Assembly: GCA_963422735.1 (NCBI GenBank)
Contig: OY730476.1
Span: forward strand, 320,001 to 384,000
Length of the DNA: 64,000 nt
Direction of reading: 5' to 3'
DNA from: Candidatus Latescibacterota bacterium
GTDB lineage: Bacteria; Latescibacterota; UBA2968; UBA8231
Positions 22,063 to 43,343 of the stretch are shown one piece after another (the stretch's first letter is position 1; each line of letters begins with the position of its first letter). The position numbers and the translations under genes were made by a program. The notes under the pieces were generated by a model. It made no database searches and was not told where the DNA came from. It saw only the letters and a list, made by a program, of their open reading frames with translations.

Positions 22063-24213
22063 ATGATGTTGCTATGGGCCGTTGTTACAGGTGTTGTGCT
22101 GTGGGGTGGCTCCGCCGAGGCGGTTAGGTGGGATTTCGACGATGGGACAACGCAGGGGTGGTCTGCCAAAGAAGCGCTTATATGGGGTGGGACGCGTGAA
22201 TTGCACCTGTTTCCGGGGGGGGTCGAAGACGGCGTGTGGCGGATCAATGTCGATCCCTCGGTCACCAAGGGTCATTATCTCGCGCCGAGTGTCGAATTGA
22301 TTTCTTCGACCATCGGGTACGATTCAGGTCTATTCGACCAAGTGCGCATCCGGTTCCGCACCGTCCATCACCACCCTACGGTCGGTAATGTTTCAATCGA
22401 GTGGACCAACGAGCACAACGCCCTGTCTTCAGGTTGGGATCCAAAAGATCCGCCGTCTGGAAGCCGGTTTCAAAGCCCCGTACAACCAATCGTTTATACC
22501 ACCGAGTGGCAGGAAGTGGTGCTCTTCTTGGCAGGTCAAGACGAGAAGATATGGCAGGGGCTGTTAAAAGATATTCAGCTAGGTTTTAGACTGGATGAGA
22601 ACAAAACAGGGGCAACTCGGTCGTCTACCGAGGTGGTCGGGTGGTTTGAGATCGACTGGATCGAGTTGACCGGCGTGGAAGAGATGATACAGGGAGAACT
22701 ACCGCCGCCGCACGTAGAGTACTTTCGCTTTGCTGAGGCCAAACTTTTTGCGCCGCCGGTGTTCTATCCGATTGCGCCGGGCATAGGGGAAGACGCTCTA
22801 GGTCTAGATAAGATCGGCGTCTTGGCGGACTTGGATGGCGATGGCGACTTAGACTTTTTCGCCCCCTATAATTACCGTCAACAGGGGCGATGGTGGTCTA
22901 AAACAGGGTGGCTGATGGCCCTCAATGACGGGCAAGGCGTCTTGGAACTAGGGCGTATAGAGGAAGTATCTGCTACAGAGCAGCCTAGTACCGATGCGGC
23001 AACTGGAACGACGACCGTCTCCGGGGTGATCATAGAGGTGATTGGTGCTGATTTGACCGGCGATGGTAAAGACGAAATCGCGATATCTGCAAGCAACAGT
23101 GGGCAAGTGACAGAAGTTTGGTCTGTGGGGCCGGAACTCCAAGTCGAGGTGCTCGTGCAGATAGAGGATCGATGGATCCGAGATGTGGCGGATTGGGATG
23201 GCGACGGCCGGGTCGAACTATTTGTAGGGGATATTACGTTTGAAGGAAGCACGTTAGAGGTCTGGGATGTCGAGCAGGGGGTGTGGGCCGCCGATGAGAT
23301 TGCGACTGCCAAAAACCATGCGCCCGCTCAGATTGGCGACTTTATCGGCGATGGGGCATTAGACGTGTTGTGGCTACCGATCGCTGGGCGAGTGAATACG
23401 TGGATTGTGCAGGCCTTGAGCGAGGAGTTTCAGAGAGGCGAGATATTTGAATTCGATGAGAGGAAAGGGCTGTTAGGGATGGGCGATTTTGATGGCGATG
23501 GACAGGTGGATTTCCTCACCGAATTCGCACTTGATCGAATCGAAGGTAGGAAGGGACTGGTTTTGCAGAGGAAGCGCGCCGGAGATCGCTTAGCAGCCGA
23601 GGTGCTCTACGATGATCGGCTGTTTCTGCGCTCGTCAGTGCGGGTGCGCGACCTCAACGCCGATGGAGTCGAGGACTGGGTATTTATCGGCGGGGATCGC
23701 GCCTCGGGCTTTGGGGTGTTTGTCGAATGGGGCGGGAGCGTCAACCCTACTCAAGCAGGGGAGCGGCATCGTCTGGAGGGCAGTGGGCGATACGTGCTGT
23801 GTGGGGATATGGATAACGACGGCGATCTCGACTTGGTGGTGTTAGATCCGATATGGGGTGGAGTGCATCTGCTCAAGAGTTCACTGGCCGAGCAGCCAAC
23901 GGCGGTGCTGACGCCGGCGGTAGCGCGACCGGTGCAGCATCGGCTGGGCGACAGCTATCCCAATCCGTTCAATCCGGCGGTGGTGCTGCCCCTTGAGTTG
24001 GCAACGGACGCGGCGGGAGTGTCGCTGACGGTGTATGACGTGTTGGGTCGTCGGGTGCGGCGGGTGTGGGACGGGTCGCTGGGGTCGGGAACGCATCGGT
24101 TTACGTGGGATGGCCGCGACGCGGCGGGCAAGGCGGTGGCCGCCGGGGTGTATATCTATCAGGTCGAAATCGACGGGCAGGTGGAAGCGAAGAAGACGAC
24201 GAAGCGGCCTTGA
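22063..24213 (+). CDS. Secreted FG-GAP/VCBS-repeat protein with C-terminal FlgD-Ig/T9SS-like domain, cassette 1
   Basis: Signal peptide (AEA), WDFDDGTTQGW domain, repeated D-x-D-G-D-G motifs, YPNPFNP..WDGRD..GVYIY. Confidence 0.9.
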   Translation: MMLLWAVVTGVVLWGGSAEAVRWDFDDGTTQGWSAKEALIWGGTRELHLFPGGVEDGVWRINVDPSVTKGHYLAPSVELISSTIGYDSGLFDQVRIRFRTVHHHPTVGNVSIEWTNEHNALSSGWDPKDPPSGSRFQSPVQPIVYTTEWQEVVLFLAGQDEKIWQGLLKDIQLGFRLDENKTGATRSSTEVVGWFEIDWIELTGVEEMIQGELPPPHVEYFRFAEAKLFAPPVFYPIAPGIGEDALGLDKIGVLADLDGDGDLDFFAPYNYRQQGRWWSKTGWLMALNDGQGVLELGRIEEVSATEQPSTDAATGTTTVSGVIIEVIGADLTGDGKDEIAISASNSGQVTEVWSVGPELQVEVLVQIEDRWIRDVADWDGDGRVELFVGDITFEGSTLEVWDVEQGVWAADEIATAKNHAPAQIGDFIGDGALDVLWLPIAGRVNTWIVQALSEEFQRGEIFEFDERKGLLGMGDFDGDGQVDFLTEFALDRIEGRKGLVLQRKRAGDRLAAEVLYDDRLFLRSSVRVRDLNADGVEDWVFIGGDRASGFGVFVEWGGSVNPTQAGERHRLEGSGRYVLCGDMDNDGDLDLVVLDPIWGGVHLLKSSLAEQPTAVLTPAVARPVQHRLGDSYPNPFNPAVVLPLELATDAAGVSLTVYDVLGRRVRRVWDGSLGSGTHRFTWDGRDAAGKAVAAGVYIYQVEIDGQVEAKKTTKRP

Positions 24214-24463
24214 GGGGATGCGTCTATGCGACCGTACGCACTCGTATTGGCCTTTGCTCAAGCACCGCAGCGGCTTGGCTCTGATGCGGCCGGGGCTGAG
24301 GGGGCCGGGTTCTCAGTGCTTCGCGGGGCTTGCGGTCCTGCTCGGCGCGCGGGGAGCCGCACGCCGACCGGGAGGGCGCGATCCCTAGGAGTAGCTATAG
24401 CCTCGCTCCGATGGTATGTAGGCGGCATCGAAGGGGCTATGAAAATGGGCGGGGCCTCGGTGC

Positions 24464-24500
24464 ATACGGAAAACCGTATCCATCATACGGAAAATCGTAT
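24464..24500 (+). promoter_or_regulatory. Putative enhancer (UAS) for cassette 2: two ATACG-N6-CGTAT palindromes
   Basis: 24464-24479 and 24485-24500, 21 bp apart. Confidence 0.75.
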
Positions 24501-24621
24501 GCTCCCTAGCACCGACGGCTCCGGCACCGACAAGTAGAAAGCTTTCTCATACATTATAAGTATCATGTTTTTCAATCTGTTAGATGCGTCCTGAAGGATT
24601 TTTTGTTCGGATTCTGCTCGT

Positions 24622-24637
24622 TGGCACGCCATTTGCA
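24622..24637 (+). promoter_or_regulatory. Sigma54 -24/-12 promoter of precursor 2 and probably of the maturation operon
   Basis: TGGCACGCCATTTGCA, an exact match to TGGCACG-N4-TTGCW; IHF-like site at 24570-24582. Confidence 0.9.
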
Positions 24638-24762
24638 TAGCATAACTGTTGAAGGCGCTGCCGATGCCGACGAAAGAAGGTATCGGTCGTTGCTCAACGC
24701 TGACTTCCAGTATGGTATCGGCCTCAGGCTGCGGACGTACTGGGCAACGAAGGAGATGGACC

Positions 24763-25044
24763 ATGGACAGTCTTCGGGAATTCTTCACGTCGTCGAGCGG
24801 GTTGGCCCCGGCTCGGCAGGGGTTGGGACTCGGGTGGGTCATCAGTGCTCTTACGGGGGTCGCTATCCTGCTCGGGGCGAAAGGAGCTGCAGCCGATTGC
24901 GACAAAAGAAAGTGGACAAGGGACTTCGGGTACAGCGCAGGTTGCGACGAGGCCACGAAAGGGGCAGCGGCGAAGATGTGTCAGGACTGTTGGCTGGACT
25001 CGAAATGCAAAACAAGGTGCGGGGGGAACTACTGCTGCGCTTGA
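24763..25044 (+). CDS. Cys-rich secreted peptide precursor 2 (93 aa; 49-aa 8-Cys core)
   Basis: Same leader ending AKGAAA, core DCDKRKWTRDFGYSAGCDEATKGAAAKMCQDCWLDSKCKTRCGGNYCCA; AAGGAG RBS. Confidence 0.9.
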   Translation: MDSLREFFTSSSGLAPARQGLGLGWVISALTGVAILLGAKGAAADCDKRKWTRDFGYSAGCDEATKGAAAKMCQDCWLDSKCKTRCGGNYCCA

Positions 25045-25100: not shown

Positions 25101-25140
25101 GGGGCCGGCTTAATCGCTGCGATTGAGCCGGCCCCCTTTT
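25101..25140 (+). terminator. Hairpin (terminator/attenuator-like) between precursor 2 and its FG-GAP gene
   Basis: GGGGCCGGCTTAATCG-CTG-CGATTGAGCCGGCCCC followed by CTTTT; homologous stems at 21966-22012 and 41111-41151. Confidence 0.7.
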
Positions 25141-25200: not shown

Positions 25201-27360
25201 ATGCTGAAATTTGTCGCTGTTGCATGGGTTGTGCTGGGCAGTAGCCTCGCCGAGGCGGTTAGGTGGGATTTCGACGATGGGACGACGCAAGGGTGGACCG
25301 CCAAAGAAGCGCTTATATGGGGTGGTACGCGTGAATTTAACCAGTTTCTGGGGGGGGTCGAAGACGGCGTGTGGCGGATCCGGATTGATCCGGCCGCTAC
25401 CAAGAGTTTGCACACCTCCAGGTCGGGTGTCGAAGTGATTTCTTCGGCGATCGGGTATGATTCGGACCTGTTCGATCAAGTCCGCATCCGGTTCCGCACC
25501 GTCCATGACCGTCCTACGGAAGGTACTTTTTCTATCGCGTGGGAAAACGCTTCCGATTTTAATCTGGATGCTGAATATGAAGCGTTAACGTCTTTTATAC
25601 ATCTCGCCCAGCAAATAGTCTATACCACCGAGTGGCAGGAATTGGTGGTATCCTTGGCGGGTCAAGCCGGATGGCAGGGCCTGTTAGAAAATATTCAGCT
25701 AAGTTTCATATCTTTTGAAGTGGTCGAGTCGTTTGAGATTGACTGGATCGAGTTGACCGGCGTGGAAGAGATGATACAGGGAGAACGGCCGCCGCCGCCC
25801 GTAGAGTACTACTTTCGCTTTGCGGGGGCCGGCCTTTTTGCGCCGCCGGTGTTCTATCCGATTGCGCCGGGCATAGGGGAAGCACCTATTGGAGGAAGGT
25901 ATCTAGGGGATAAGGTATGGGGCAACGTGTTGACGGACTTGGATGGCGATGGCGACTTAGACCTGTTCGGCCTCTGGAAAACGCGAACGGAAATACCACA
26001 TGGGTATGAGGATAAAGCGGGCTGGCTGATGGCTGTCAATGACGGGCGAGGGGCCTTGGAACGTGGGCCTGTTATAGAAGAAGTAATGGCTGCAGGTTGG
26101 GTGGTCTTAAAGATGCTGAGTGCTGATTTGACCGGCGATGGTAAGGACGAAATCGCGATATCACGAAGCAACCGGGAACCCTCGACCGAAGTGTGGTCTA
26201 TCGGGCCGGAACTCCAAATCGAGGTGCTCGTGCAGTTCGATAGCGGGCTCCATAATGTGGCGGATTGGGATGGCGACGGCCGGGTTGAGTTATTTACGGG
26301 GGGGGCTATGTTTGAAGGCTCTTTAGAGGAAGTGATCGCGGGTACGGCGAAGTTTTCAAGCAGGTTAGCGGTCTGGGAGGTCGAACAGGGCGTGTGGACT
26401 TCCGAGGAAGTGGCGGCTTCCCAAGACTATACGCCCTCTCATATCGGCGACTTTACTGGCGATGGGACCCTCGATGTGTTTTGGGTGCCGATCGCCGGGG
26501 AAGCCCGTGGGATGAACAGGTGGATTGTGGGAGCCTTGGGCGAGGAGCATCAGAAAGGAGAGATATTTGAATTCGATGAACGGAAGGGGCCGTTAGGGGT
26601 GGGCGATTTTGATGGTGATGGGCAGGTGGATTTCCTCACCGAGTTCACATCCCCTCAATTCAAAGATGGCATAGAAAGAATTAGCATAGAAGGTAGTAAG
26701 GGGATCGTCTTGCAGAGAAAGGGAGCCGGGGATCGCCTCGAAGCGGAGGTGCTGTATGATGATCGGCTGTTTCGGCGCTCGCCGGTGATGGTGCGCGACC
26801 TCAACGCCGATGGAGTCGAGGACTGGGTGTTTATCGGCGGGGATCGCGCCTCGGGCTTTGGGGTGTTTGTCGAATGGGGCGGGAGCGTCAACCCTACTCA
26901 AGCAGGGGAGCGGCATCGTCTGGAGGGCAGTGGGCGATACGTGCTGTGTGGGGATATGGATAACGACGGCGATCTCGACTTGGTGGTGTTAGATCCGATA
27001 TGGGGTGGGGTGCATCTGCTTGAGAGTTCACTGGCCGAGCAGCCAACGGCGGTGCTGACGCCGGCGGTAGCGCGACCGGTGCAACATCGGCTGGGCGACA
27101 GCTATCCCAATCCGTTCAATCCGGCGGTGGTGCTGCCCCTTGAGTTGGCAACGGACGCGGCGGGAGTGTCGCTGACGGTGTATGACGTGTTGGGTCGTCG
27201 GGTGCGGCGGGTGTGGGACGGGCCGCTGGGGTCGGGAACGCATCGGTTTACGTGGGATGGCCGCGACGCGGCGGGCAAGGCGGTGGCTGCCGGGGTGTAT
27301 ATCTATCAGGTCGAAATCGACGGACAGATAGAAGCCAAGAAGACGACCAAGCTACCGTAA
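25201..27360 (+). CDS. Secreted FG-GAP/VCBS-repeat protein with FlgD-Ig/T9SS-like domain, cassette 2
   Basis: ATG 25201 after GGAGGT; paralog of 22063..24213. Confidence 0.9.
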   Translation: MLKFVAVAWVVLGSSLAEAVRWDFDDGTTQGWTAKEALIWGGTREFNQFLGGVEDGVWRIRIDPAATKSLHTSRSGVEVISSAIGYDSDLFDQVRIRFRTVHDRPTEGTFSIAWENASDFNLDAEYEALTSFIHLAQQIVYTTEWQELVVSLAGQAGWQGLLENIQLSFISFEVVESFEIDWIELTGVEEMIQGERPPPPVEYYFRFAGAGLFAPPVFYPIAPGIGEAPIGGRYLGDKVWGNVLTDLDGDGDLDLFGLWKTRTEIPHGYEDKAGWLMAVNDGRGALERGPVIEEVMAAGWVVLKMLSADLTGDGKDEIAISRSNREPSTEVWSIGPELQIEVLVQFDSGLHNVADWDGDGRVELFTGGAMFEGSLEEVIAGTAKFSSRLAVWEVEQGVWTSEEVAASQDYTPSHIGDFTGDGTLDVFWVPIAGEARGMNRWIVGALGEEHQKGEIFEFDERKGPLGVGDFDGDGQVDFLTEFTSPQFKDGIERISIEGSKGIVLQRKGAGDRLEAEVLYDDRLFRRSPVMVRDLNADGVEDWVFIGGDRASGFGVFVEWGGSVNPTQAGERHRLEGSGRYVLCGDMDNDGDLDLVVLDPIWGGVHLLESSLAEQPTAVLTPAVARPVQHRLGDSYPNPFNPAVVLPLELATDAAGVSLTVYDVLGRRVRRVWDGPLGSGTHRFTWDGRDAAGKAVAAGVYIYQVEIDGQIEAKKTTKLP

Positions 27361-27365
27361 ACGGC

Positions 27366-27956
27366 ATGGGACAGCCTAAGCATCCATTATACTGGATGTA
27401 CTCCGGTTTAATCCTGCTCTTAATCCCTGCGATTATTGTGCTTGTGGACCGCTATGAAAAGAGCCTCAGCCCCCAAGCGCCCCTACCGCCTGCTCCGCCT
27501 AAAGAAGTTGTGTTGCGCGGTCTCGCCGCGTTTGATTCCACCGCGAGTGCTCTCCACCTAAAAGAAGTGTATCAGGCCGTGCCCGCGCTGCGTTCCGGGG
27601 TGTTGTCAGCCTATCGCGTGCTTACAGACGACGAGGCATTGGCCTACAAGCTAGTCGTCGTTCGCCACGATATTGCCTGTGCTACCTGCCGCGATCTACT
27701 GGTTGGCATCCTCATAGAGCCGAAGGAAGACCGCGTTGCGGCTGTTTGGTCCTTGGCGTCTTGGGAGCTGGCCGACGGCCGCTTCGATCCGACCGCCTTC
27801 TTTGCCCAACTGAGCGGGCGGGCACTCGCTGAGCCTTTGGTTGTAGGCCGGGATATCGATGGAATCACCGGGGCGACCCTGTCCGTAAATGCCTTGGTGA
27901 CCCAATGGAGCCAAGCGGGCACTTGGCTGGCGGAGTCCACGGGAATCACCTTTTGA
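27366..27956 (+). CDS. Membrane-anchored FMN-binding domain protein with CxxC motif
   Basis: N-terminal TM (ILLLIPAIIVLV), CATC, DIDGITGATLS flavinylation-type motif; ATG 5 bp after the upstream stop. Confidence 0.7.
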   Translation: MGQPKHPLYWMYSGLILLLIPAIIVLVDRYEKSLSPQAPLPPAPPKEVVLRGLAAFDSTASALHLKEVYQAVPALRSGVLSAYRVLTDDEALAYKLVVVRHDIACATCRDLLVGILIEPKEDRVAAVWSLASWELADGRFDPTAFFAQLSGRALAEPLVVGRDIDGITGATLSVNALVTQWSQAGTWLAESTGITF

Positions 27957-27969: not shown

Positions 27970-29127
27970 ATGGATATGTTGCTGAATGAGATTGATCTCG
28001 TCTTCTTGCTAGAGTGGGGCCTGCTGTGCTCGATCATGGCTGTTGCCGCCTACACAACTTATACGGACGTCAGCCATAGAGAGATTCCCAATTCGGCTAT
28101 TGGGACTTTGCTCGGTCTGGGGCTGATAGGGCAGATGGGATTGTGGATATTGGGTGAGGTTGCACTCGTATCGATCGGGCTATCATTGCTGCTGGGATTT
28201 GCCGTAGGCTACCTGTTGTTTATGTATGGCTTCTGGGGGGCGGGGGATGCCAAGTTGTATTGGGCCATGGTCGCGGCGATGCCTAGTACGTTGTTTGGTC
28301 AGAAGTGGCCGACTCTCTCCTTGGCCTTTTTTTCGCTAGATACCCCTATTTGGTCCTTGTTGGTCAATACCATTTTGACCAATACCGTTTTTCTTGTAGT
28401 CCTTCTGGTCCTCCATAAACCCGCAAGACCCATCGCAATCTCTGCAAGCGAGCATAGAAAGGGCATGAATTGGGGCTGGCTGCGCTCGGGGTTTGAAGCG
28501 GCAGGATTGAGCGGGTTGGTGTTAGGTGGGACGACGTTGGTCGGCGTGACCTTGACCCTCGCCGAGGCTATCGTAGTGGGGGCTGTGCTCTATTTGATCC
28601 ATGAAGAGCGGACCAAGGCGCCCAATAGAATTATTTGGGTCGTTCCCGGGCTTGTAATCGGTGTCTTTAGCACCATCAGCACCGGGAACTACCTGATCTG
28701 TCTCTTGCTTTGGGCCGTGCTGTGGGGCATACAGACCGTCTATGTGTATATCCACGCTCTCGAGTACCAGAAGTTTGTGCAGCCGGTTTCTATCGATGCC
28801 TTACAGCCGGGCATGGTGCTACATCAGTCGATTTATGAAGCCCCTGCGGAAGGGCGAGTCGAAGTAGTTTCGTTCGGCGAGCAGAGTAGAGATACGCGGG
28901 AGCGAATAGGTCGAATGGGCAAGCCGTTGACCGGGCGAAAAGTGCGCCAGCTAAAAGACCTACAAAAAAAGGGATTGTTCCGCGAATGGGACGATCAGGT
29001 AGAAGTTGAACTGTCGCTGCCCTTTGCGCCGGTCTTGATGGTTGGCGTCGGCCTAACTCTGATATGGCCCGGAAGTATGGTAAGGCCAGTCAATCGGTGG
29101 ATTCAGCCGTTGTTCGATGCGTTTTAG
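27970..29127 (+). CDS. A24-family prepilin/preflagellin peptidase (GxGD aspartyl protease), FlaK/PibD-like
   Basis: YTDVSHREIPN (Asp1), WGAGDAKL (GxGD), multiple TMs, C-terminal LQPGMVL..LPFAPVLMVG; no PilD N-terminal Cys/methylase domain. Confidence 0.85.
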   Translation: MDMLLNEIDLVFLLEWGLLCSIMAVAAYTTYTDVSHREIPNSAIGTLLGLGLIGQMGLWILGEVALVSIGLSLLLGFAVGYLLFMYGFWGAGDAKLYWAMVAAMPSTLFGQKWPTLSLAFFSLDTPIWSLLVNTILTNTVFLVVLLVLHKPARPIAISASEHRKGMNWGWLRSGFEAAGLSGLVLGGTTLVGVTLTLAEAIVVGAVLYLIHEERTKAPNRIIWVVPGLVIGVFSTISTGNYLICLLLWAVLWGIQTVYVYIHALEYQKFVQPVSIDALQPGMVLHQSIYEAPAEGRVEVVSFGEQSRDTRERIGRMGKPLTGRKVRQLKDLQKKGLFREWDDQVEVELSLPFAPVLMVGVGLTLIWPGSMVRPVNRWIQPLFDAF

Positions 29128-29145: not shown

Positions 29146-29700
29146 ATGAAAGCTATGCGCTCGAAACCGCAAGCGACGATGCTGTTGCTGTCAACGGTGC
29201 TGGGCATCCTCTTGGGGACCAGTATATTGTTGGCCACAAAAATCAACAATCCTCCAATCGCCCCAATGGCGACGAGCTTGGAAAACCTGTTGGGTGAACG
29301 CGTCCCGGAGTACAAACTCGAACAACTGAACGGTGCTCCAATCTCGACCCATCTGTACAAGGGCGAATCCCACCTGCTGGCCTTTACGCTGCCGAGTTGT
29401 GATGCCTGTGACACCATGTACCCCATTTTAAGGGAAGCGGCTACAGATATTCCCATTTTGATGATTGCCAATACACGAGAAGGACTGATGGAAAAGGTCG
29501 CCGAACACGCCTTGGCCTTTCCCATTGCTGTAGATACACTGCTGCTGACGATGGAAGAGCTCAACATCACGAATTTCCCGACCGCGCTCTTGGTGGATGG
29601 GGAACAAAGGATCGTCGAGGCCGTCAGGGGCGGCGGCTTCCCGATTGAGAACATTGTACAGTCCGCGCAGAAAGTACTTGAAAAAGAGAGGACACAATGA
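29146..29700 (+). CDS. Membrane-anchored TlpA/MauD-like thioredoxin-fold protein
   Basis: N-terminal TM, PSCDAC, cis-Pro loop NFPTALLVD. Confidence 0.8.
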   Translation: MKAMRSKPQATMLLLSTVLGILLGTSILLATKINNPPIAPMATSLENLLGERVPEYKLEQLNGAPISTHLYKGESHLLAFTLPSCDACDTMYPILREAATDIPILMIANTREGLMEKVAEHALAFPIAVDTLLLTMEELNITNFPTALLVDGEQRIVEAVRGGGFPIENIVQSAQKVLEKERTQ

Positions 29701-30227
29701 GGGCCGATCAAAAGCATTGGAAGATCGCCGGGCTTGTGAGCGTGGTCTTGTTGCTGGTGCTGATTTTCAAGGAGAAGTCTGAGGAACCAGCGGGGATCGT
29801 CTGGAGCGAGGAGGATACGAAGCGTTCTGAGTATCTATCTGAAGGAACAGACGCCCCTGACTTTGAATTGCCCTCTATGCAAGGGGGCCACGTCCGTCTC
29901 AGCCGTTTTAAGGGGCAGCGGGTAGGGCTGATTTTTGTAACCCCTACCTGCCCGTATTGCAACGACTTGGAACGTTACTTGGTAGAGTACGACCTTCCCC
30001 AAGAGAGCCATTTGCTACTGGTCAGCCAAGGTACGAAAGACCAAGTGCAGCAAATCGTCGAAAACCACGACTTGGCGATACCCGTTTTGGTCGACTCAGC
30101 GGGTGCGGTTGCCCAAGCCTACCGGATCGGGGGTGTGCCGCAGTTTTACGTGGTGAGCAAGGAGGGAAGCATTGCTTCTTTTGCGCGAGGGATGCCGCCG
30201 GTATGGGAAGCCGTGCAAAAGCTATAA
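29697..30227 (+). CDS. Membrane-anchored TlpA/ResA-like thiol-disulfide oxidoreductase
   Basis: GTDAPDFELP, PTCPYC, GVPQFYVV; ATGA overlap with the upstream gene. Confidence 0.85.
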   Translation: MRADQKHWKIAGLVSVVLLLVLIFKEKSEEPAGIVWSEEDTKRSEYLSEGTDAPDFELPSMQGGHVRLSRFKGQRVGLIFVTPTCPYCNDLERYLVEYDLPQESHLLLVSQGTKDQVQQIVENHDLAIPVLVDSAGAVAQAYRIGGVPQFYVVSKEGSIASFARGMPPVWEAVQKL

Positions 30228-30248
30228 ACAAGGAGGACACTACGAGGT

Positions 30249-31454: not shown

Positions 31455-31462
31455 AGGACAAA

Positions 31463-33943: not shown

Positions 33944-34195
33944 GGGAGCTGACGTTACGCAGTGCTTTGTCGCGGACGAACCAGTCCATCAGGTGGTCCC
34001 CCGCCGGTGGCCCCCGCTGGATGTCACGCCTAAAGGCGCGGTGAAGCCTGCTTCCGCAGGAAGGATCCTCGCCCGGACCGAGGTTCGAGCCCAAGGCTCG
34101 TCATTCCCTCGAAAGTGGGGAGGCAGCGGGGGGAGGCAGGGCGAAACCACGCCTTGGGCGGTAAACTGCGTAACGCCAGTAAGGGAGCGAGCTCA

Positions 34196-35239: not shown

Positions 35240-35242
35240 GGC

Positions 35243-36583
35243 ATGAGACGGCCATGGAAGGTTCCGCTGCAAAAAGATAGAAGACTGCAAAGTTGCTTGG
35301 CGCTGTCGCTGGCCTTGCATCTGCTGGCGATGTTTGGCGTCGCGCACCGCGAGCGGGTTACTCAATTCCCTGTCCTCCCGCCGATCATGGTGAAGTTTAC
35401 CAAACGGCCACCGCCGCAGCGCACCCTCACCCGTCGCCAACGGCCCCACCAACGGCCCTTGGTGCGCCGCCCGGCCCTGCAAGCGGCCCCGGTCGAGGCC
35501 GTGCGGCCGGCTCCCTCGGCGGTGCGCCCGCTGCCGGTGTTCCAGACCTCGGCTCCCCGGCTGTCGACGGCTTCGCTGCCGGATCGGGTGGTGTTGCCCG
35601 TGCCGGATTTTCCGGCTCGGCACATTGGCCCGCACCTGCGGGTTGGGGCGTTGGAAGGGACGCGGCAGGGCGCGGACGAGATTGACTTGGGCTTGGAGAT
35701 GATGGATGTGCAGGCGCTGGACACGGGGCGGCACCGGGCGATGGTCGTGGTCGATCCCAAAGATCGGCGCAACCTCAAGGGGTTCCTCTATATGTCCGGC
35801 CTCTACAGCCCTTCCATCGAACGGGCTGAATACAGTGAGCAGGCCGAAAATATACAAGTGCGCTGGTATCACCAGATGCCGCGCCAAATGGTGGAACGGC
35901 GGATGCTGCAAGGGTTAGCCGATAAGATGACTGCCAGTACGCAGGTCCACGTCGAAGTGCGCGACGCGATTCGACTCGACGATCCGCAGCTTTTGCAAGT
36001 CCCCTTCGTGCTGCTAACTGTCAATACCCCCTTTGAGTTTACGGACAGCGAGGCGGCCAATCTAGGGGCGTATTTGACCGGCGGCGGCTTCCTGTTTGTG
36101 GATATTGTCCGCATGTTGTGGAACAATTATAGAGACGACGAATTAGACATTCCCTCGGTGCGTTCCCTCATTCGCGCCGGCTTCCAAGCAGTGGGCTATC
36201 AAGAATGGAAGGATTGGCAGTTTAGCCGCCTAGAGCTAACCCATCCGCTCTATCATTGCTTCTACGATGTAAACAGCCTGCCGCGCGGGATGCGCGATAT
36301 GCACTTTATGGTTGATGACTATCCGCCACGCACGCCGGACTATTTGGAGGGGATCATGGTCGGGGAGCAGTTGGTGGGGGTGTATTCGATGCGGAACTAC
36401 GCGGATTTCTGGGCGGGCATCGGTCGGGAGTTGGTGGATTGGTCTTTGGCGAATAACGTAGTCAACCACTCGGCTCTGGTCAGTGCCGAAGAGCCGTTGG
36501 TCTATGATTTGGGGGTGAATATCGTGGTGTACGCGTTGACGCGGGAGGGATCATTGGCGCGGCAATTAGTCGATGCAGACTGA
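35243..36583 (+). CDS. DUF4159-domain protein with TonB-like N-terminal anchor and Pro-rich linker (copy 1)
   Basis: SLALHLL anchor, Pro/Arg linker, EAANLGAYLTGGGFLFVD, HPLYHCFYD, LGVNIVVYALT. Confidence 0.75.
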   Translation: MRRPWKVPLQKDRRLQSCLALSLALHLLAMFGVAHRERVTQFPVLPPIMVKFTKRPPPQRTLTRRQRPHQRPLVRRPALQAAPVEAVRPAPSAVRPLPVFQTSAPRLSTASLPDRVVLPVPDFPARHIGPHLRVGALEGTRQGADEIDLGLEMMDVQALDTGRHRAMVVVDPKDRRNLKGFLYMSGLYSPSIERAEYSEQAENIQVRWYHQMPRQMVERRMLQGLADKMTASTQVHVEVRDAIRLDDPQLLQVPFVLLTVNTPFEFTDSEAANLGAYLTGGGFLFVDIVRMLWNNYRDDELDIPSVRSLIRAGFQAVGYQEWKDWQFSRLELTHPLYHCFYDVNSLPRGMRDMHFMVDDYPPRTPDYLEGIMVGEQLVGVYSMRNYADFWAGIGRELVDWSLANNVVNHSALVSAEEPLVYDLGVNIVVYALTREGSLARQLVDAD

Positions 36584-36750: not shown

Positions 36751-37241
36751 ATGTTGCCCATTTCCATTTGTGTATGGATGGTGCTGTTGAGTGGCCCTGC
36801 GGCGGCGATCAGGTGGGGTTTTGACGATGGGACGATGCAGGGATGGGGAGCCAAGAAACCTATTAGTGCCGGGGGGATCATCCGTTGTCTGGGGCGGTCG
36901 AAGCGGCGTGTGGCGGATCAATGCCTTTCGCACCGGCGGCCTCAGTGGATCCGGGATCGAATTGATTTCTCCTACGATAGGCTATGATTCGCACCTTTTC
37001 GACCGGGTGCGGGTGCGGTTCCGCACGGTCCATCACAGTCCTACAACAGGAGACGTACTCCTCCGCTGGACCAATGAGCACAACCTCATGTACCCGGGTA
37101 GTGACCCCCTACCGGGAAGGGGTCGGTTTTCTCTTCCCGCAAACGGCACCTACGGCGAGTTGGTATATACGACCGAATGGCAAGAGTTCGAGTTTTCGTT
37201 GGTTGACATGGAGGAGAATTTCTTCTGTGTGATAAGACCCA
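36751..37241 (+). pseudogene. Frameshifted N-terminal remnant of another FG-GAP paralog
   Basis: Signal peptide + IRWGFDDGTMQGW, then in another frame LISPTIGYDSHLFDRVRVRFRTVHH..VYTTEWQE; ends where the regulator block starts. Confidence 0.85.
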
Positions 37242-37291
37242 AGCTGCTGCGGGGAGGGGCCTAAAATCTTCCAAGCACCGAAAGGACGAGT

Positions 37292-40200
37292 ATGAGCGCC
37301 ATATCCTTTGAGCATATGTTGAGCCGCCAGTACACGGTCTTCGATGGGCTGGGTGGGATGCACGTGGAAGACATCTACCAAGACCGCCAAGGCTTTCTCT
37401 GGATCGCCACGGCCGACGGTGGCGTCAGCCGGTTCGACAGTGTGCGCTTCGATACCTTTAACACCAAAGATGGCCTGCCCAATCTGACGGTGATGGCCAT
37501 TGCCGAGGAAGCCGACGGGCGGCTGCTGTTGGGCACGTTTGGCGGGGGGATCGCCGCCTACGACGGGCGCGGCTTTCAGGTGTACACCACCGAGCACGGC
37601 CTGCCTTCCAATGAGATCGTGAGCCTGCAACCGCAGCCGGATGGCTCGATGCTGGTGCTGACCAACGAGGGGGTAGCGTGGTTTGCCGAGGGGGGCTGTA
37701 CAAGGAGCATAACCGATGTTGGCGGCCAACCGTTGGGGCGGGTGTACGATATGGCCACTGACGCGGGCGGCACCACTTGGCTGGCCACGTGGGAGCGAGG
37801 TGTTCTCAGCTTGGATGGGCGGTGCATGGATACCGGCGACCGGGCGGTGCGATGGCCTTGGAAATTCGCCGAAGGTCCCTCTGGCCACCTGTGGATTGCC
37901 TTCCTGTACATGAACCCCGAAACCTTTATCGGCCGCTACGATGCGCGAGACGAGCAGTTCGCATTCATCCATGTGGATTGCGAAGCCGAGAGGGCTGCGC
38001 AGAATGGGGTGCGGCATGTGCGGGTTGACGATAGGGGCTGGCTCTGGCTGGCGCGCCGAGGGGTGGTGGTACACACAGGTCAAGAGTGGCAGCAGGTTTC
38101 CGCCTCCCTGCCCGATATTGACTTTTCGGGTACGCGCCTGACGTACGAGGACCGCGAGGGCAATATATGGATCGGGCTTTGGGGCGGCGGGCTAATTTTT
38201 TGCGATCCGGCCAGCGTCCGGCTCTACACCGAAGCCAACGGCCTGCCGGACCGCGAGGTTCGCCACTTAGGCGAAGATTCTAAGGGGCGGATGTGGATCG
38301 GCACGATGGGGGGCATGGCCTGCATGGAAGAGGGGCAAATCCGTCCGCTCGATCAGTTTGAAACCGTTTCGGCGATGATGGTGGATAGCGCGGGGCAGGT
38401 CTGGAGCGGCGGGGACACCGGCCGGGTGTACAAGTGGGAAGGCCAGACGCCGCGAGCGATCGCCGTGGATGAAGAAATCCACTCCGAAAAAATCACCGGG
38501 CTGTGCCAAGACGGGCAAGGGCGTATATGGATTGGCACGTTCCGCGGCCACTTCGGCTGGGTAGAAGCCCATCGCTTCACCCTCCTCGACGAGTGGGAAG
38601 GCGATGAATGCCGCGCCCTGCTGCGAAACCAAAACGGGGTATTCTGGATTGGTTTCTTCGGCAGAGTCCCGGCACTTTACTGGTACGAGGACGGTCATTT
38701 TCGCCCGGTGAAGATGGACGAGTTGGAGACGATCGTCTATGTCAATGTCTTGTGGGAGCACCAAAATGTCTTGTGGATCGGCACGGCTAAGGGGCTTTTC
38801 GCGCTCGACCACTCGTCGGGGCAGGTGCGCCACTTTACGACCGATCAGTTTGAGCGGTCGGCCAATGGCGTCTTGGCACTGGCGGCCGACCGCCAGGGCC
38901 ATATTTGGATTGGGACCAGTGGTGGGGGTGTGCTGCGCTACGACGGCGAGACCTTCCAAAGCATCCGCTTAGGGCCGTCTGCTCTCGTAAACATAGTCGA
39001 GGCTATTCTATGCGACCGCGATGGCCGGCTGTGGTTTGGGACGCGGGCCGGCTTGGTCGCCTACCAGCCCGGCGACACGCCGCCGCGCTTGGTGATCCGC
39101 GAGGTGATGGCCGGCACCCTCTTAGATGCGCCTGAAGCCGTCTCCTGCTCAGAGAGCATTCCCGAAATCCGCATCCACTTCCAAGGCATCAGCTTCCGCA
39201 CCGGCGTACAGCAGATGCGCTATCGCCACCGCTTGGTAGGCTACGGCCCGGCCGAACCGTGGAGCGCGTTCACCGCCGTCGATGCGGTGGTGTACACCGC
39301 CTTGCCGGTGGGCGACTACCGCTTTGAGGTGCAGACCATAGACCAAGATGGCCTGAAGTCCGAGGTGATCGGCTTGGACGTCCACATCCTCCCCGGCATC
39401 CAAACTGAACGCTTCCGCGCTTTCGGAAAGGCCCTGCGGGCGATCGAGTCTGTTGTGCCGAGCCGCAGTCGGGCCATGCAACAGGTGATGAAAAAAGTCT
39501 CGCAGGTCGCCGGGACCGATATGACCGTGCTGGTGCTGGGCGAGACCGGCACGGGCAAGGGGGTGCTCGCGCAGACCCTCCACGACACAAGCCGCCGCCA
39601 CGGGCATCCCTTTATCCAAGTCAATTGCGGGGCACTGCCCCCCGGGTTGGTCGAGAGCGAGTTGTTCGGCCACGAGAAAGGGGCCTTTACCGGCGCAAAC
39701 ACCCGCCAGATCGGGCGCTTTGAACTGGCCGATGGCGGCACACTCTTTCTGGACGAAATCGGCGATTTGCCGTTGGAATCTCAGCGGGTGCTGCTGCATA
39801 TCTTAGAGGAGAATACCCTGACCCGCGTCGGTGGCGAGCAGTCTGTGCGGGTGGATGTGCGGGTGATTGCGGCGACCAACCTCGACCTACAGCAGGCTAT
39901 CGAGGAGGGCACGTTCCGCAAAGACCTGTTTTATCGTCTGGAGGTCTTCGCGCTTGAGCTTCCGTCGCTGCGGCAGCGGTGCGAGGATATACCGGCTTTA
40001 GCCGCGCATTTTGTGGAGTGGTATGCCCAAGACCTCAAGCGGCCGGTGCCGACGATAGACGACGGGGTGGTCGCGCATTTGCAGGCGTACTCTTGGCCGG
40101 GGAATGTGCGCGAACTGGAGCACGTGATCCACCGGGCGGTCTTGCTGTGCGAGGGTGGTGTGATAGGGGTGGAGGAGGTGGCGTTGCCGGCTGAAGACGA

Positions 40201-40438
40201 GGAGGGGGACGAAAGCCAGTCGCCCCCGCCGGCTGAACGACAAACCGGGGATGCGGCCGAAGAGACGCCGCTTGTCGAAGGCATGGACGAAAAGCAGCAG
40301 ATTGTGGAGGCCCTGCAAGCGACCAATTGGATGATCTACGGCGAGCGCGGCGCGGCCAAACTGTTGGATATGAACCCGGAGAAACTGCGTTCCCGCATGC
40401 GCGTGTACGGGTTGCGGCGACCGAAAAAGTCGTCTTAA
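37292..40438 (+). CDS. Sigma54 enhancer-binding protein with N-terminal two-component-regulator beta-propeller and Y_Y_Y domains
   Basis: Many D..G.LWI(G/A)T..G repeats, YRHRLVG..VYTALPVGDYRFEVQ, GETGTGKG, GAFTGA, FLDEIGD, WPGNVRELEH, C-terminal HTH. Confidence 0.9.
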   Translation: MSAISFEHMLSRQYTVFDGLGGMHVEDIYQDRQGFLWIATADGGVSRFDSVRFDTFNTKDGLPNLTVMAIAEEADGRLLLGTFGGGIAAYDGRGFQVYTTEHGLPSNEIVSLQPQPDGSMLVLTNEGVAWFAEGGCTRSITDVGGQPLGRVYDMATDAGGTTWLATWERGVLSLDGRCMDTGDRAVRWPWKFAEGPSGHLWIAFLYMNPETFIGRYDARDEQFAFIHVDCEAERAAQNGVRHVRVDDRGWLWLARRGVVVHTGQEWQQVSASLPDIDFSGTRLTYEDREGNIWIGLWGGGLIFCDPASVRLYTEANGLPDREVRHLGEDSKGRMWIGTMGGMACMEEGQIRPLDQFETVSAMMVDSAGQVWSGGDTGRVYKWEGQTPRAIAVDEEIHSEKITGLCQDGQGRIWIGTFRGHFGWVEAHRFTLLDEWEGDECRALLRNQNGVFWIGFFGRVPALYWYEDGHFRPVKMDELETIVYVNVLWEHQNVLWIGTAKGLFALDHSSGQVRHFTTDQFERSANGVLALAADRQGHIWIGTSGGGVLRYDGETFQSIRLGPSALVNIVEAILCDRDGRLWFGTRAGLVAYQPGDTPPRLVIREVMAGTLLDAPEAVSCSESIPEIRIHFQGISFRTGVQQMRYRHRLVGYGPAEPWSAFTAVDAVVYTALPVGDYRFEVQTIDQDGLKSEVIGLDVHILPGIQTERFRAFGKALRAIESVVPSRSRAMQQVMKKVSQVAGTDMTVLVLGETGTGKGVLAQTLHDTSRRHGHPFIQVNCGALPPGLVESELFGHEKGAFTGANTRQIGRFELADGGTLFLDEIGDLPLESQRVLLHILEENTLTRVGGEQSVRVDVRVIAATNLDLQQAIEEGTFRKDLFYRLEVFALELPSLRQRCEDIPALAAHFVEWYAQDLKRPVPTIDDGVVAHLQAYSWPGNVRELEHVIHRAVLLCEGGVIGVEEVALPAEDEEGDESQSPPPAERQTGDAAEETPLVEGMDEKQQIVEALQATNWMIYGERGAAKLLDMNPEKLRSRMRVYGLRRPKKSS

Positions 40439-40474
40439 AGAGGATTGCGGCTAACCGAAGAGGCTGCGCTCTTG

Positions 40475-40511
40475 ATACGGAAAGTCGTATAAATCATACG
40501 GAAAGTCGTAT
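40475..40511 (+). promoter_or_regulatory. Putative enhancer (UAS) for cassette 3
   Basis: ATACGGAAAGTCGTAT at 40475-40490 and 40496-40511, 21 bp apart. Confidence 0.75.
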
Positions 40512-40620: not shown

Positions 40621-40636
40621 GGGCACGGAATGTGCA
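40621..40636 (+). promoter_or_regulatory. Sigma54 -24/-12 promoter of precursor 3
   Basis: GGGCACGGAATGTGCA (GG-N10-GC); IHF-like CTTCAACGCTTTA at 40570-40582, at nearly the same distance as in cassettes 1 and 2. Confidence 0.75.
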
Positions 40637-40786
40637 TATACAAAAGCAAGGCCTAGGCGGAAGTGCCGAAGCAGAAAGAAGGTGAGCGAACCACATCCTG
40701 GGCTTTACTTCACATCTCATTCCCTCGTCCCGTAGCCTCGCAGCACTTGGTCGCGGGCCTACGGGCGTATTGAGGAGGTAGAAGTT

Positions 40787-41059
40787 ATGAACACGTTGCG
40801 GGAGTTTTTCACGTCGTCGAGCGGGTTGGTGCCGGCTCGGCAGGGGCTGTCGCTGGGGTGGGTCATCAGTGCCCTCGTAGGGGTCGCCATTCTGGTCGGG
40901 GCAGAGGAAGCTGAAGCCCAAGATTGTCCGTCTACTTCGTTTGATTGCGAATACATGTATCCCACACACTGCACGAAATATTTTCCGACCCGGTGCTGCG
41001 TGATTAAGCTGGACCATAATTGCAGGAGCACTCTAGAATATTGTTTCTGCACCCCCTAA
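40787..41059 (+). CDS. Cys-rich secreted peptide precursor 3 (90 aa; 46-aa 8-Cys core)
   Basis: GAGGAGGT RBS; MNTLREFFTSSSGLVPARQGLSLGWVISALVGVAILVGAEEAEA-QDCPSTSFDCEYMYPTHCTKYFPTRCCVIKLDHNCRSTLEYCFCTP. Confidence 0.9.
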   Translation: MNTLREFFTSSSGLVPARQGLSLGWVISALVGVAILVGAEEAEAQDCPSTSFDCEYMYPTHCTKYFPTRCCVIKLDHNCRSTLEYCFCTP

Positions 41060-41110
41060 GAGCCATAGCTACTGACATAGCTATGAGGCTATTTCTCCGG
41101 CTAAGGTGCT

Positions 41111-41151
41111 AAGAGGGCTAGCTTAATCGTAGCGATCGAGCTAGCCCTCTT
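41111..41151 (+). terminator. Hairpin between precursor 3 and its FG-GAP gene
   Basis: AAGAGGGCTAGCTTAATCG-TAG-CGATCGAGCTAGCCCTCTT. Confidence 0.7.
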
Positions 41152-41201
41152 CTCAACTACCTAGAGAGGGTATCAGTCGGAATTTCGGAAAGGAGTGGAC
41201 T

Positions 41202-43343
41202 ATGATGTTGCTATTGACCGTTGTTGCAGGCGTCGTGCTATTGGGCAGTTCCGCCGTGGCGATCAAGTGGGATTTCGACGACGGGACAACGCAAGGGTGG
41301 TCCGCCAAGGAAGCTCTTACATGGGGGGGTACGCGTGAATTGTATCTGTTGCCGGGGGTGGTCGAAGACGGTGTGTGGAGAATCACGGTCGATCCCTATG
41401 TCACCAAAAGCCATTATAGTTCGGCGAGTATTTTCGTGAGTTCTTCTGCCGAATTGATTTCTCCTACTATAGGGTACGATTCGGATCTGTTCGACCATGT
41501 CCGCATCCGGTTCCGCACCGTCCATGACCTCCCTACGGTCGGTAGTTTTTCGATCTCTTGGACCAACGAGCACAACGCTAGGTTGGATATAGAAGATTTT
41601 TCTGAGGACCAGTTTGTCCTCCCCCTCCAATCCATAGTCTATACCACCGAGTGGCAGGAAGTGGTGATCGCCTTGGGGCATCAAGACGAGACGATATGGG
41701 AAGGTCTGTTAAAAGATATTCAGCTAAGTTTTGTACTGGATAGAGCGGACGCCCCTCTGTTGGGCGAGCTAGTCAAGTGGTTTGAGATCGACTGGATCGA
41801 GTTGACCGGTGTGGAAGAGCAATTACAGGGGGAATTAGCCCCTCCTTACGTGGACTATTTTCGCTGGGATGAGGCTGGCGTTTTTGCCCCGCCGGTGTTC
41901 TATCCGATTGCGTCGGGCATAGGAAAAGGTCAACTAGGACAGGCCGGCAGCGTGTTGACGGACTTGGATGGCGATGGCGACACAGACCTGTTGGCTGTCT
42001 GGCGGTACCATCAGAGGAGGTCTCCTACGACGGGCTGGCTGATGGCTGTCAATGACGGGCAAGGGGCCTTGGAACTGAGGCGCATAGAGGAGGTAGTTTC
42101 CACAGGGCAGCCTAGTACCGATGCAGCATCTGGCATCACAACCATCTCATTGGTGAGCGCAGAGGTGCTAGGTGCTGATTTGACGGGCGATGGGCAAGAC
42201 GAAATCGCGATATCTATAAGCAATAATAATAGTCTCGTAACAGAGGTTTGGTCTATCGATCCGGAACTCCAAGTCGAGGTGCTGGTGCAGATTAAAGATA
42301 GATGGCTCAGGAATGTGGCGGATTGGGATGGTGATGGCCGGGTCGAATTATTTGTAGGGAAGACTACGTTTGAGGGAAGCATTTTAGAGGTCTGGGATGT
42401 AGCACAGGGCGTGTGGACCGCCGAGGAGGTAGGTGTGGCCGAAAGGCATTCGCCCGACACCATCGGCGACTTTACCGGCGATGGCGCACTCGACGTGTTG
42501 TGGCTCCCGATCGCTGATCTGGTGAACACGTGGATTATGAGTCCCTTGGGCGAGGATCTGCAAAGAGGCGAGGTATTTGAATTCGATGAGTGGAAGCAGT
42601 TATTGGGGGTGGGCGATTTTGATGGCAATGGTCAGGTGGATTTTCTCACGGAGTTCTTCTTTGATGGAATGGAAGGCAGCAAGGGGCTGGCCTTGCAGCA
42701 AAAGAGCACCGGGGATCGCGTAGAAGCGGCGGTGCTGTATGATGAGCGACTGTTTCGCGGTTCGCCAGTGGAGATACGCGACCTCAACGCCGATGGGGTA
42801 GAAGACTGGGTGTTTATCGGTGGAGACCGCGCCTCGGGCTTTGGGGTGTTTGTCGAATGGGGCGGCAGTGTCCGTCCTACCCAAGCCGGGGAGCGGCATC
42901 GGCTGGAGGGCAGGGCGACCACCGTGCTGTCGGGGGATATGGATGGGGACGGCGATGTGGACTTGGTGGTGTTGGATCCGATCTTGGGTGGGGTGCATGT
43001 GCTCAAGAGTTCGTTGGGCGAGCAGGCGACCGCGGTACTGACGACCGCAGCCGTGCGGCCGGCGCAGTATCGGCTGGGCGACAGCTATCCGAATCCATTC
43101 AATCCCCAAGTGGTGATTCCCCTCGATTTGGCGACAGACGCGGCGGGGGTGTCGCTGCGGGTGTACGATGTGTTGGGTCAGCAGGTGCGGCAGTTATGGG
43201 ACGGGCCGCTGGCGGCGGGTAGCCATCGGTTTGTGTGGAATGGCCGCGACGAGGAGGGTAAGGAAGTGGCCGCTGGCGTGTATATCTATAAGGTTGAGAT
43301 GGATGGACAGATACAAGCGAGGAAGACGACGAGACTGCCGTGA
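41202..43343 (+). CDS. Secreted FG-GAP/VCBS-repeat protein with FlgD-Ig/T9SS-like domain, cassette 3
   Basis: Full-length paralog of 22063 and 25201; AAGGAG RBS. Confidence 0.9.
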   Translation: MMLLLTVVAGVVLLGSSAVAIKWDFDDGTTQGWSAKEALTWGGTRELYLLPGVVEDGVWRITVDPYVTKSHYSSASIFVSSSAELISPTIGYDSDLFDHVRIRFRTVHDLPTVGSFSISWTNEHNARLDIEDFSEDQFVLPLQSIVYTTEWQEVVIALGHQDETIWEGLLKDIQLSFVLDRADAPLLGELVKWFEIDWIELTGVEEQLQGELAPPYVDYFRWDEAGVFAPPVFYPIASGIGKGQLGQAGSVLTDLDGDGDTDLLAVWRYHQRRSPTTGWLMAVNDGQGALELRRIEEVVSTGQPSTDAASGITTISLVSAEVLGADLTGDGQDEIAISISNNNSLVTEVWSIDPELQVEVLVQIKDRWLRNVADWDGDGRVELFVGKTTFEGSILEVWDVAQGVWTAEEVGVAERHSPDTIGDFTGDGALDVLWLPIADLVNTWIMSPLGEDLQRGEVFEFDEWKQLLGVGDFDGNGQVDFLTEFFFDGMEGSKGLALQQKSTGDRVEAAVLYDERLFRGSPVEIRDLNADGVEDWVFIGGDRASGFGVFVEWGGSVRPTQAGERHRLEGRATTVLSGDMDGDGDVDLVVLDPILGGVHVLKSSLGEQATAVLTTAAVRPAQYRLGDSYPNPFNPQVVIPLDLATDAAGVSLRVYDVLGQQVRQLWDGPLAAGSHRFVWNGRDEEGKEVAAGVYIYKVEMDGQIQARKTTRLP

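Follow-up and report, generated by a model that had tools for sequence, protein, structure and literature searches.

The 64-kb stretch of DNA analyzed here (the window) comprises bases 320001-384000 of the single 4.95-Mb contig of a Candidatus Latescibacterota genome (GCA_963422735.1). It contains three cassettes, all on the forward strand, in which the gene for a small cysteine-rich peptide precursor is followed by the gene for a large protein with FG-GAP and FlgD-type domains (FG protein). Peptide 1 (21628-21906) has 92 amino acids (aa), a 44-aa leader plus a 48-aa core of class A1 with eight cysteines, and precedes FG1 (22063-24213; 716 aa). Peptide 2 (24763-25044; 93 aa), with a leader as in peptide 1 and a class-B core with eight cysteines, precedes FG2 (25201-27360; 719 aa counted from the ATG that matches its paralogs; clade B). 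Peptide 3 (40787-41059; 90 aa, class A3, eight cysteines) precedes FG3 (41202-43343; 713 aa). The gaps between peptide and FG gene are 156, 156 and 142 bp in cassettes 1, 2 and 3, in agreement with a preliminary description of this DNA in which each precursor was followed 140-160 bp later by a paralog of 713-719 aa. Another peptide-FG pair, the fourth in this genome, is located 1.39 Mb away (locus 2); its leader is of a second type (PLVEFVTSPSGHVEPRQGLAMGW...) and its FG protein is 35% identical to FG3. The existence of this distant pair indicates that the pairing is not due to chance. Window genes were scanned with Pfam and NCBIfam. For comparison, 61 loci were fetched from match lists, a sample rather than a full census, and annotated with our own hidden Markov models (HMMs). 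In total these loci contain 144 full-length FG genes and 72 short peptides, plus 27 longer proteins that bear the leader.

Peptides 1-3 have in common a near-invariant 44-residue leader (MDSLREFFTSSSGLAPARQGLGLGWVISALTGVAILLGAKEAEA), which is followed by divergent cores of 46-49 residues with eight cysteines. The cysteine spacing is C6C5C10C0C7C7C1C in core 1 and C6C7C7C0C7C6C1C in core 3; these two belong to one scaffold, and core 2 has another (C14C11C2C5C3C4C0C), so the likeness of cores 1 and 3 described earlier is real. Scaffolds, of which the family has at least four, are discrete and kept across species, and peptides 1 and 3 represent the related classes A1 and A3. The leader has two candidate processing sites. 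One, (R/K/E)-x-G|(L/F), lies ahead of a W-containing hydrophobic helix. It is present in 172 of 173 unique peptides from the genus, where position -1 is G or A and position +1 is L, F or I, and a prepilin-like site also occurs in 13 of 16 sequences from other genera. The other, A-x-A, lies ahead of the core in 132 of the 173, with a different small-x-small motif in 36 more. In AlphaFold2 models the peptide 2 core (predicted local distance difference test score, pLDDT, ∼90) forms a strand, a helix and two strands, and the leader is not confidently folded. Foldseek returned no match to the core fold at E<=0.001, and the best match in the VIA wide structure search (laterosporulin3, Z 2.8) was not significant. 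No Pfam or NCBIfam family matched the peptides, and none of the 159 clusters that the peptide family forms among 5.8 billion proteins is named or has a Pfam domain.

The FG proteins match Pfam FG-GAP_3 with 49-57 bits (cut-off 26.9) and FlgD_ig, in FG1-3, with 44-50 bits (cut-off 27), and FG1 also matches TIGR04183 (31.5 bits, cut-off 23). The AlphaFold2 model of FG3 (mean pLDDT 83.7), with the strand pattern read by eye, consists of a signal peptide, a beta-sandwich at residues ∼20-205 (N-domain), a propeller at ∼230-605 and a C-terminal domain at 637-713; the layout of FG1, whose assignment otherwise comes from Pfam, NCBIfam and alignment, is borrowed from this model. With Foldseek, FG3 showed architecture-level likeness to galactose oxidase, CRTAC1 and integrin alpha (TM score ∼0.35). 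A sequence profile of the propeller gave weak matches to CRTAC1, to the PL11 lyases YesW/YesX and to PVL lectin, with E-values of 7e-7 to 3e-4 for YesW/YesX and the lectin. Comparison of the FG N-domain with carbohydrate-binding module (CBM)-type domains in the ESM Atlas gave values of 0.90-0.92, which we treat only as a lead. As described before, FG1 and FG2 are nearly identical at the C-terminus (last ∼200 residues) and vary by substitutions and indels in the N-terminal and central parts. Alignment likewise places the QPSTDAA(T/S)GxTT insert in FG1 and FG3 and not in FG2, as originally reported. Orthologues of FG1 and FG3 elsewhere carry a related (x)TDAA(T/S)GxTT insert in diverged form; the insert is thus a clade feature. 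Gene conversion of the QPSTDAA motif, whose strict pattern occurs in 3 of 144 FG proteins, was considered and dropped on the same alignment.

Each cassette begins with a predicted regulatory region. Pattern matching identified palindromic activator-binding-like sites (ATACGGRAANNCGTAT) upstream of all three peptide genes, three in cassette 1 (21303-21370, +) and two each in cassette 2 (24464-24500, +) and cassette 3 (40475-40511, +). These seven are the only matches in the window, where 0.00 were expected. Approximately 120-190 bp downstream of them lie sigma-54-type promoters, GGCAT-N5-TTGCA in cassette 1 (21493-21507, +; pattern match and alignment), GGCAC-N5-TTGCA in cassette 2 (24623-24637, +; pattern match) and GGCAC-N5-GTGCA in cassette 3 (40622-40636, +; pattern match). 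The combined -24/-12 pattern GGCAY-N5-KTGCA has three matches in the window, one per peptide, against 0.74 expected. Among the arrangements seen in the sampled loci are runs that combine one peptide with one to five FG genes. A sigma-54 motif was found at <=300 bp upstream of 35 of 41 type-1 peptides that head a run (background 0.017 per 300 nt), and none of nine peptides internal to arrays had a promoter of its own. The window also encodes a sigma-54 activator (37292-40438, +; 1048 aa) with Reg_prop propellers, Y_Y_Y and an AAA+ domain (Pfam); its DNA-binding tail is assumed from the 873-aa paralog at locus 2, which has HTH_8. When read by eye, the activator sequence has no long hydrophobic stretch, and its sensor part is therefore probably cytoplasmic.

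Between peptide and FG gene lies a hairpin. Cassette 3 has the conserved form (41113-41149, +), cassette 2 a GC-rich hairpin with a pyrimidine-rich tail (25101-25135, +), and cassette 1 a weakened copy followed by a T-run (21969-22003, +); these coordinates were counted by hand. Among 24 related intergenic sequences the hairpin has 13 pairs, 7 of them with compensatory changes. It lies just past each peptide stop and has a conserved CTAAGGTG box ahead of it. The element looks like an attenuator or an RNA 3′-end stabilizer, and an Rfam search of 19000-47000 at E<=0.1 found no family.

Downstream of FG2 is a block of genes that accompanies the peptides. It includes an A24 prepilin-type aspartyl peptidase (27970-29127, +; 385 aa; Pfam Peptidase_A24 30 bits, cut-off 26.5) with both catalytic motifs, D33 (YTDVSHREIPN) and D93 (GAGDAKL). 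This is the only full-length A24 gene in the genome. Locus 2 has a remnant of one (L016:8594-9004; G000:C1:1708594-1709004), the C-terminal third, 33% identical to residues 246-380; thus, the window enzyme may serve both loci. Within the genus, an A24 homologue was found in 17 of 30 other genomes. All 17 also match the peptide profile, and the 10 genomes without a peptide are all without A24 as well. Full-length A24 matches adjoin peptide loci in nearly every case, and a second A24 subtype (39-41% identical) adjoins the second leader subtype. The closed 4.95-Mb contig (completeness 95%) contains no match at E<=0.001 to T2SSE (PF00437) or T2SSF (PF00482), in a search whose controls were positive in 13 of 14 genomes, and so offers no type IV filament system as a source of substrates. 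We infer that this orphan A24 peptidase has the leader family as its substrate; signal peptidase I may then release the core at the second site.

The same block includes a membrane-anchored FMN_bind-like protein with a GITGATLS motif in its translation (27366-27956, +). Its family assignment comes from the locus-2 homologue (L016:9015-9638; 35% identical), which matches Pfam FMN_bind (E 0.002) and NCBIfam RnfG (2e-5). Homologues occur in 24 of 62 sampled sources (the 61 loci and the window). As a constant member of the peptide module, this protein suggests an extracytoplasmic flavin-dependent redox step in peptide folding. Two thioredoxin-fold genes follow (29146-29700 and 29697-30227, +); they are ResA/MauD-like, with NCBIfam matches to ResA, MauD and DsbE that are all below the cut-offs (35 and 46 bits against 188.6 for MauD). 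At one locus in a genome of another family (L106:3804-5765), a Mutator-family transposase interrupts the second thioredoxin gene, and three peptide genes in tandem lie downstream. The window block continues with a conserved set of accessory genes for a TPR protein, a transglutaminase-like protein, a GT2 glycosyltransferase and a DUF4159 protein (30249-36583, +; Pfam). This block recurs at type-1 loci with 71-89% identity and at type-2 loci with 34-49%. In methylamine dehydrogenase and quinohemoprotein amine dehydrogenase (MADH/QHNDH), a small subunit rich in disulfides or thioethers sits on a 7-bladed propeller subunit, alongside MauD-type thioredoxin helpers. The present cluster resembles these systems in that it encodes a small Cys-rich protein whose leader is long, a propeller protein and thioredoxin-fold proteins of MauD/ResA type. 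It differs in that the MauD matches are far below cut-off, the core of peptide 3 has no Trp for a tryptophan tryptophylquinone-type cofactor, no haem, radical-SAM or amicyanin genes were seen, and the propeller is of the FG-GAP type.

The preliminary description had proposed that the FG proteins might be sorted to the surface by a type IX secretion system (T9SS). The genome does encode components of this system: SprA_N (84 bits, cut-off 27) and PorU (632 bits, cut-off 420) exceed their thresholds, and a PorV-like gene (152 bits) falls under its cut-off of 250. Sequences matching the FG-type C-terminal domain occur at some 100 places in the genome. In addition, we found 27 fusion proteins of 200-330 aa that combine the same leader with one to three tandem Cys-rich modules and an FG-type linker and C-terminal domain; examples are L045:3381-3980(-), L061:7823-8812(+) and L087:5349-6338(+), and none of the 27 lies in the window. 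One of them shares 55% identity with a short class-A1 peptide and 72% with FG3 residues 607-713. In loci where their position was noted, the fusion proteins sit at the downstream end of FG arrays. The fusions mean that a core can go together with T9SS sorting if it carries the domain in cis; combined with the T9SS genes, they point to the cell surface as destination. Both FG and fusion proteins end in Por_Secre_tail/FlgD_ig, like the type-A cargo of Bacteroidota, whose SprA, PorU and PorV have the counterparts given above. Unlike the Bacteroidota systems, this one belongs to a different phylum, and its short peptides end without a C-terminal sorting domain. We infer that they use the domain of the FG protein in trans.

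Across genomes, the peptide and FG genes form a conserved unit. The FG body (a 600-aa query) has matches in 25 of 30 other genomes of the genus and in none of 30 genomes outside it; matches reach ∼26 per genome and often form tandem arrays. The peptide profile has matches in 20 of the 30, and all 20 of these genomes are also FG-positive. Directly after a short peptide, an FG gene was found in 63 of 70 cases that were not at a locus edge, with a median gap of 160 bp; of the remaining seven, one peptide is overlapped by an FG gene by 62 bp, two are followed by another peptide and then FG, and four had no FG gene found. Looking upstream from the 140 non-edge FG genes, the neighbor was another FG gene in 44 cases, a longer leader-bearing protein in five and a peptide fragment in five, and in 30 nothing of the system lay within 700 bp. 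Outside the genus, the peptide profile matched in 8 of 137 further genomes of the phylum. The 14 peptide loci outside the genus include A24 in nine, thioredoxin genes in ten, an FMN-bind gene in eight and FG in two.

Peptide core class and FG clade were congruent across the sampled loci. In a FastTree phylogeny of the 144 FG sequences trimmed of their C-terminal domain, the 16 genes that follow a class-B peptide all fell in a single 33-member clade (support 100), the 14 that follow a peptide with the second-type (L2) leader all fell in a deep L2 clade of 31, and the three that follow a class-A3 peptide all fell in a 5-row clade. FG1 and FG3 stand together in a 17-row group beside clade B, and about half of each FG clade is without its own peptide. 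Over 42 type-1 pairs, core distance correlated (Spearman) with that of the FG N-domain (rho 0.61) and propeller (rho 0.56), compared with rho 0.30 for the peptide's own leader and 0.06 for the FG C-terminal domain. Median nonsynonymous (pN) and synonymous (pS) substitution rates over 27 orthologue-like pairs were 0.09 and 0.32 for the leader, 0.28 and 0.23 for the core, 0.14 and 0.27 for the FG N-domain, 0.13 and 0.31 for the propeller, and 0.08 and 0.36 for the C-terminal domain. By this comparison the cores are fast-evolving. Taken together, the correlations and rates indicate a variable unit made of core plus FG body and flanked by conserved, homogenized handles, a pattern in line with functional coupling. 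Horizontal movement of a cassette of core and FG body was considered as well. Of the 27 pairs, 18 had a lower pS in the core than in the leader (p 0.07) and 17 a lower pS in the propeller than in the C-terminal domain (p 0.11); neither result is significant, and we take this as a hint only.

The window retains traces of how such handles could have been homogenized. FG1 and FG2 differ at synonymous sites by only 0.02-0.07 in alignment columns 601-750, compared with 0.6-0.9 in the variable parts. DNA covering the FG C-terminus, intergenic region, promoter and leader is repeated with 93.7% identity (20428-21760 = 23600-24895), and immediately downstream the synonymous sites of peptide cores 1 and 2 are saturated. 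This mosaic of near-identical flanks and saturated cores points to gene conversion of the shared flanks. A test for positive selection between FG1 and FG2 in 50-codon windows gave ratios of nonsynonymous to synonymous divergence (dN/dS) of 0.15-1.06 and no clear signal.

Decayed copies lie at two places in the window, and both of the degenerate FG paralogs noticed previously were recovered with our HMMs, with slightly revised limits. The left one (20252-21041, +) is a C-terminal part in two frames (matches 20252-20437 and 20427-21038; Pfam FlgD_ig), and its last 203 aa are 96% identical to FG1. The right one (36751-37261, +) is an N-terminal part in two frames (matches 36751-36984 and 36902-37261). 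Upstream of the left remnant is a 265-aa 5′ fragment of a sigma-54 activator gene (19378-20175, +; Pfam Reg_prop), a recent copy of the start of 37292-40438: an 824-bp segment carrying the activator 5′ end is duplicated with 99.6% identity (19328-20151 = 37242-38065). The left copy runs into the FG C-terminal remnant, an arrangement that suggests a further activator-peptide-FG cassette after a recent internal deletion. Other duplications involve a second DUF4159 gene (43590-44933, +; Pfam), with 94% DNA identity to 35153-36571, and a 148-bp segment just past the second thioredoxin gene (30096-30243), 90% identical to one just past FG3 (43346-43492).

These observations can be joined in a single model, in which each pair would be one copy of a sigma-54 operon module composed of activator sites, a -24/-12 promoter, peptide, hairpin and one or more FG genes. 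The peptide would be exported by way of its conserved leader, which the A24 peptidase and signal peptidase I would process, and the two thioredoxin-fold proteins together with the FMN-bind-like membrane protein would help it to fold as a compact mini-protein rich in disulfides. T9SS would export the FG protein as a cargo with a signal peptide, a CBM-like jelly roll, an FG-GAP propeller that has likeness to lectins and polysaccharide lyases, and a C-terminal domain of type A. In the periplasm, the peptide would bind the variable body (N-domain and propeller) of the FG protein with which it is co-transcribed, and would then either ride out with it or cap it until export. Duplication of whole modules would have produced both the pairing and the mirrored likeness of cores 1 and 3 and of FG1 and FG3, and later gene conversion would have homogenized the shared handles, namely promoter, leader and C-terminal domain. 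The mirroring that the preliminary description took as co-evolution is real, and it reflects co-duplication and is not proof of co-evolution. We put forward the joint reading, a duplicated sigma-54 module whose A24-processed disulfide mini-protein binds a co-transcribed T9SS FG cargo, tentatively, as a possibility that falls somewhat short of probable. We find doubtful the broader proposal that such mini-proteins exist phylum-wide with an A24 peptidase and oxidative-folding module of their own, in genomes that have no type IV filament machinery, and that in this genus they evolved into class-specific partners that hitch-hike on, or cap, a greatly expanded family of T9SS FG cargo. A complex prediction for FG2 residues 20-640 with the peptide 2 core, made with our own alignments and without control runs, scored 0.00 and counts neither way.

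Several observations weigh against so close a partnership. Of 140 non-edge FG genes, only 56 are preceded by a short peptide of their own; 44 of 136 sit in runs without a peptide at the head, and at least three FG clades in the sample, which is not a full census, are never found with one. Five of 25 FG-positive genomes of the genus are peptide-less. In other genera, 12 of 14 peptide loci are without an FG gene; at four of five such loci with a gene listing the peptide is followed instead by an uncharacterized secreted protein of 296-339 aa (L097:8144-9118(+), L099:5983-6951(-), L102:6497-7501(-), and L104:7771-8661(+) and 8699-9691(+)). That family may be an alternative partner in place of the FG proteins; it has no Pfam match and ends in ...TWGRIKASL. 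The hairpin, if it lowers read-through, would yield more peptide than FG protein, which is at odds with a simple 1:1 complex. Tight linkage and duplication of a two-gene unit would be expected to give both the class congruence and the distance correlation without any binding, and a contiguous segment between recombination-prone conserved flanks would look alike. Finally, the +5 residue of the leader is Trp (LGLGW) and not the Glu that bacterial type IV pilins usually carry, which tells against A24 cleavage. The strict one-to-one pairing originally proposed thus does not hold, because FG homologues are common without a peptide gene. What the runs and the FG genes without their own peptide support is a looser rule within the genus, by which a peptide is followed by FG and FG needs no peptide. 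In these terms, one peptide goes with a single FG protein or with several.

Some of these points would be equally at home if peptide and FG protein were co-regulated and physically independent, the abundant peptide having a job of its own, the FG proteins being glycan-binding surface proteins that share its promoter, and the pairing being a product of duplication. FG genes that are common without peptides, peptides without FG genes in other genera, a hairpin between the two genes, and array-internal peptides without promoters of their own all agree with independence, and linkage alone would account for congruence and correlation. Within the genus, however, a peptide almost never occurs without FG directly behind it, every peptide-positive genome is FG-positive, and core divergence follows the FG body and not the flanking leader or C-terminal domain. 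We regard independence as possible, if rather unlikely. Peptide excess caused by the hairpin would also suit an inhibitor or cap, in which the periplasmic peptide keeps a lectin- or lyase-like FG protein inactive until T9SS export, much as an immunity protein or a pro-peptide acting in trans. Class-specific co-variation, fast-evolving cores and the weak propeller matches to YesW/YesX and PVL lectin are in line with such a role. We nevertheless consider it improbable, given the many FG genes without a peptide, the leader-core-C-terminal-domain fusions that themselves send cores to the surface, and the fact that catalytic residues in the FG proteins were not identified.

A more distant possibility is that the peptide is a pilin-like, membrane-anchored mini-protein or a signaling leader and the FG protein an unrelated cargo. 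The A24 peptidase would remove the first 20 residues, after which the helix would anchor the remainder, or the released N-terminal fragment would feed back on the apparently cytoplasmic activator, which by eye has no long hydrophobic stretch. Type IV prepilins carry a class III signal peptide cleaved by an A24 peptidase, and pilA can depend on sigma-54 and PilR. The locus resembles these systems in several ways: its A24 peptidase has both Asp motifs, the leader ends in G or A at a conserved G|L site, after which come L or F and ∼20 hydrophobic residues, and the peptide gene has upstream activator sites, a sigma-54 promoter and a strong hairpin downstream, as in the pilA model. Unlike the situation for a type IV pilin, an assembly ATPase or platform gene was not found in the genome, the +5 residue is not Glu, the head domain comprises 45-50 aa and eight cysteines, and the partner is a T9SS cargo protein. 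The conserved A-x-A past the helix suggests release by signal peptidase I, and the T9SS-domain fusions must be soluble in the periplasm; a pilin-like role is thus quite improbable. Still less likely, in our judgment, is the reading of the preliminary description, a bacteriocin or toxin with the FG protein as its immunity factor or receptor. Class II bacteriocins and ribosomally synthesized and post-translationally modified peptides (RiPPs) come from leader-core precursor operons with a hairpin after the structural gene. The peptides resemble them in being small, disulfide-rich and secreted, with a conserved leader, variable and fast-evolving core classes, precursor genes in tandem and a hairpin ahead of the genes that follow, and the top structural match, though not significant at Z 2.8, was a defensin-like bacteriocin. 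In contrast to those systems, the leader resembles an export signal, and the scanned window genes include no C39 protease, C39/ABC exporter or small membrane immunity gene. They likewise include no class-defining RiPP modifying enzyme, the transglutaminase-like and GT2 proteins not being class-defining. A 715-aa T9SS cargo would be unusual as an immunity factor, and the extra FG genes without peptides form full-length, conserved clades and are not truncated orphans.

Apart from the question of binding, the locus belongs to a wider system in which Cys-rich mini-proteins with prepilin-like leaders are accompanied by an A24 peptidase dedicated to them and by a redox module. In this genus, the system has been linked with a family of T9SS propeller proteins that has expanded. 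A full-text literature search, at the level of listings and abstract openings, returned no described counterpart of the wider system. If the peptides are true A24 substrates, they would place a prepilin-type peptidase outside any pilus, secretion pseudopilus or archaellum and define an unnamed peptide family. If they bind the FG proteins, T9SS cargo would carry a second protein, and the genus would hold a natural library of matched peptide-propeller pairs for studying the evolution of specificity. The broader proposal given above, if true, would be both a new use of prepilin peptidase and the first T9SS export in trans. Whether or not there is binding, the FG matches, up to ∼26 in a genome and under sigma-54 control, constitute a major unstudied repertoire of surface proteins in an uncultured lineage.

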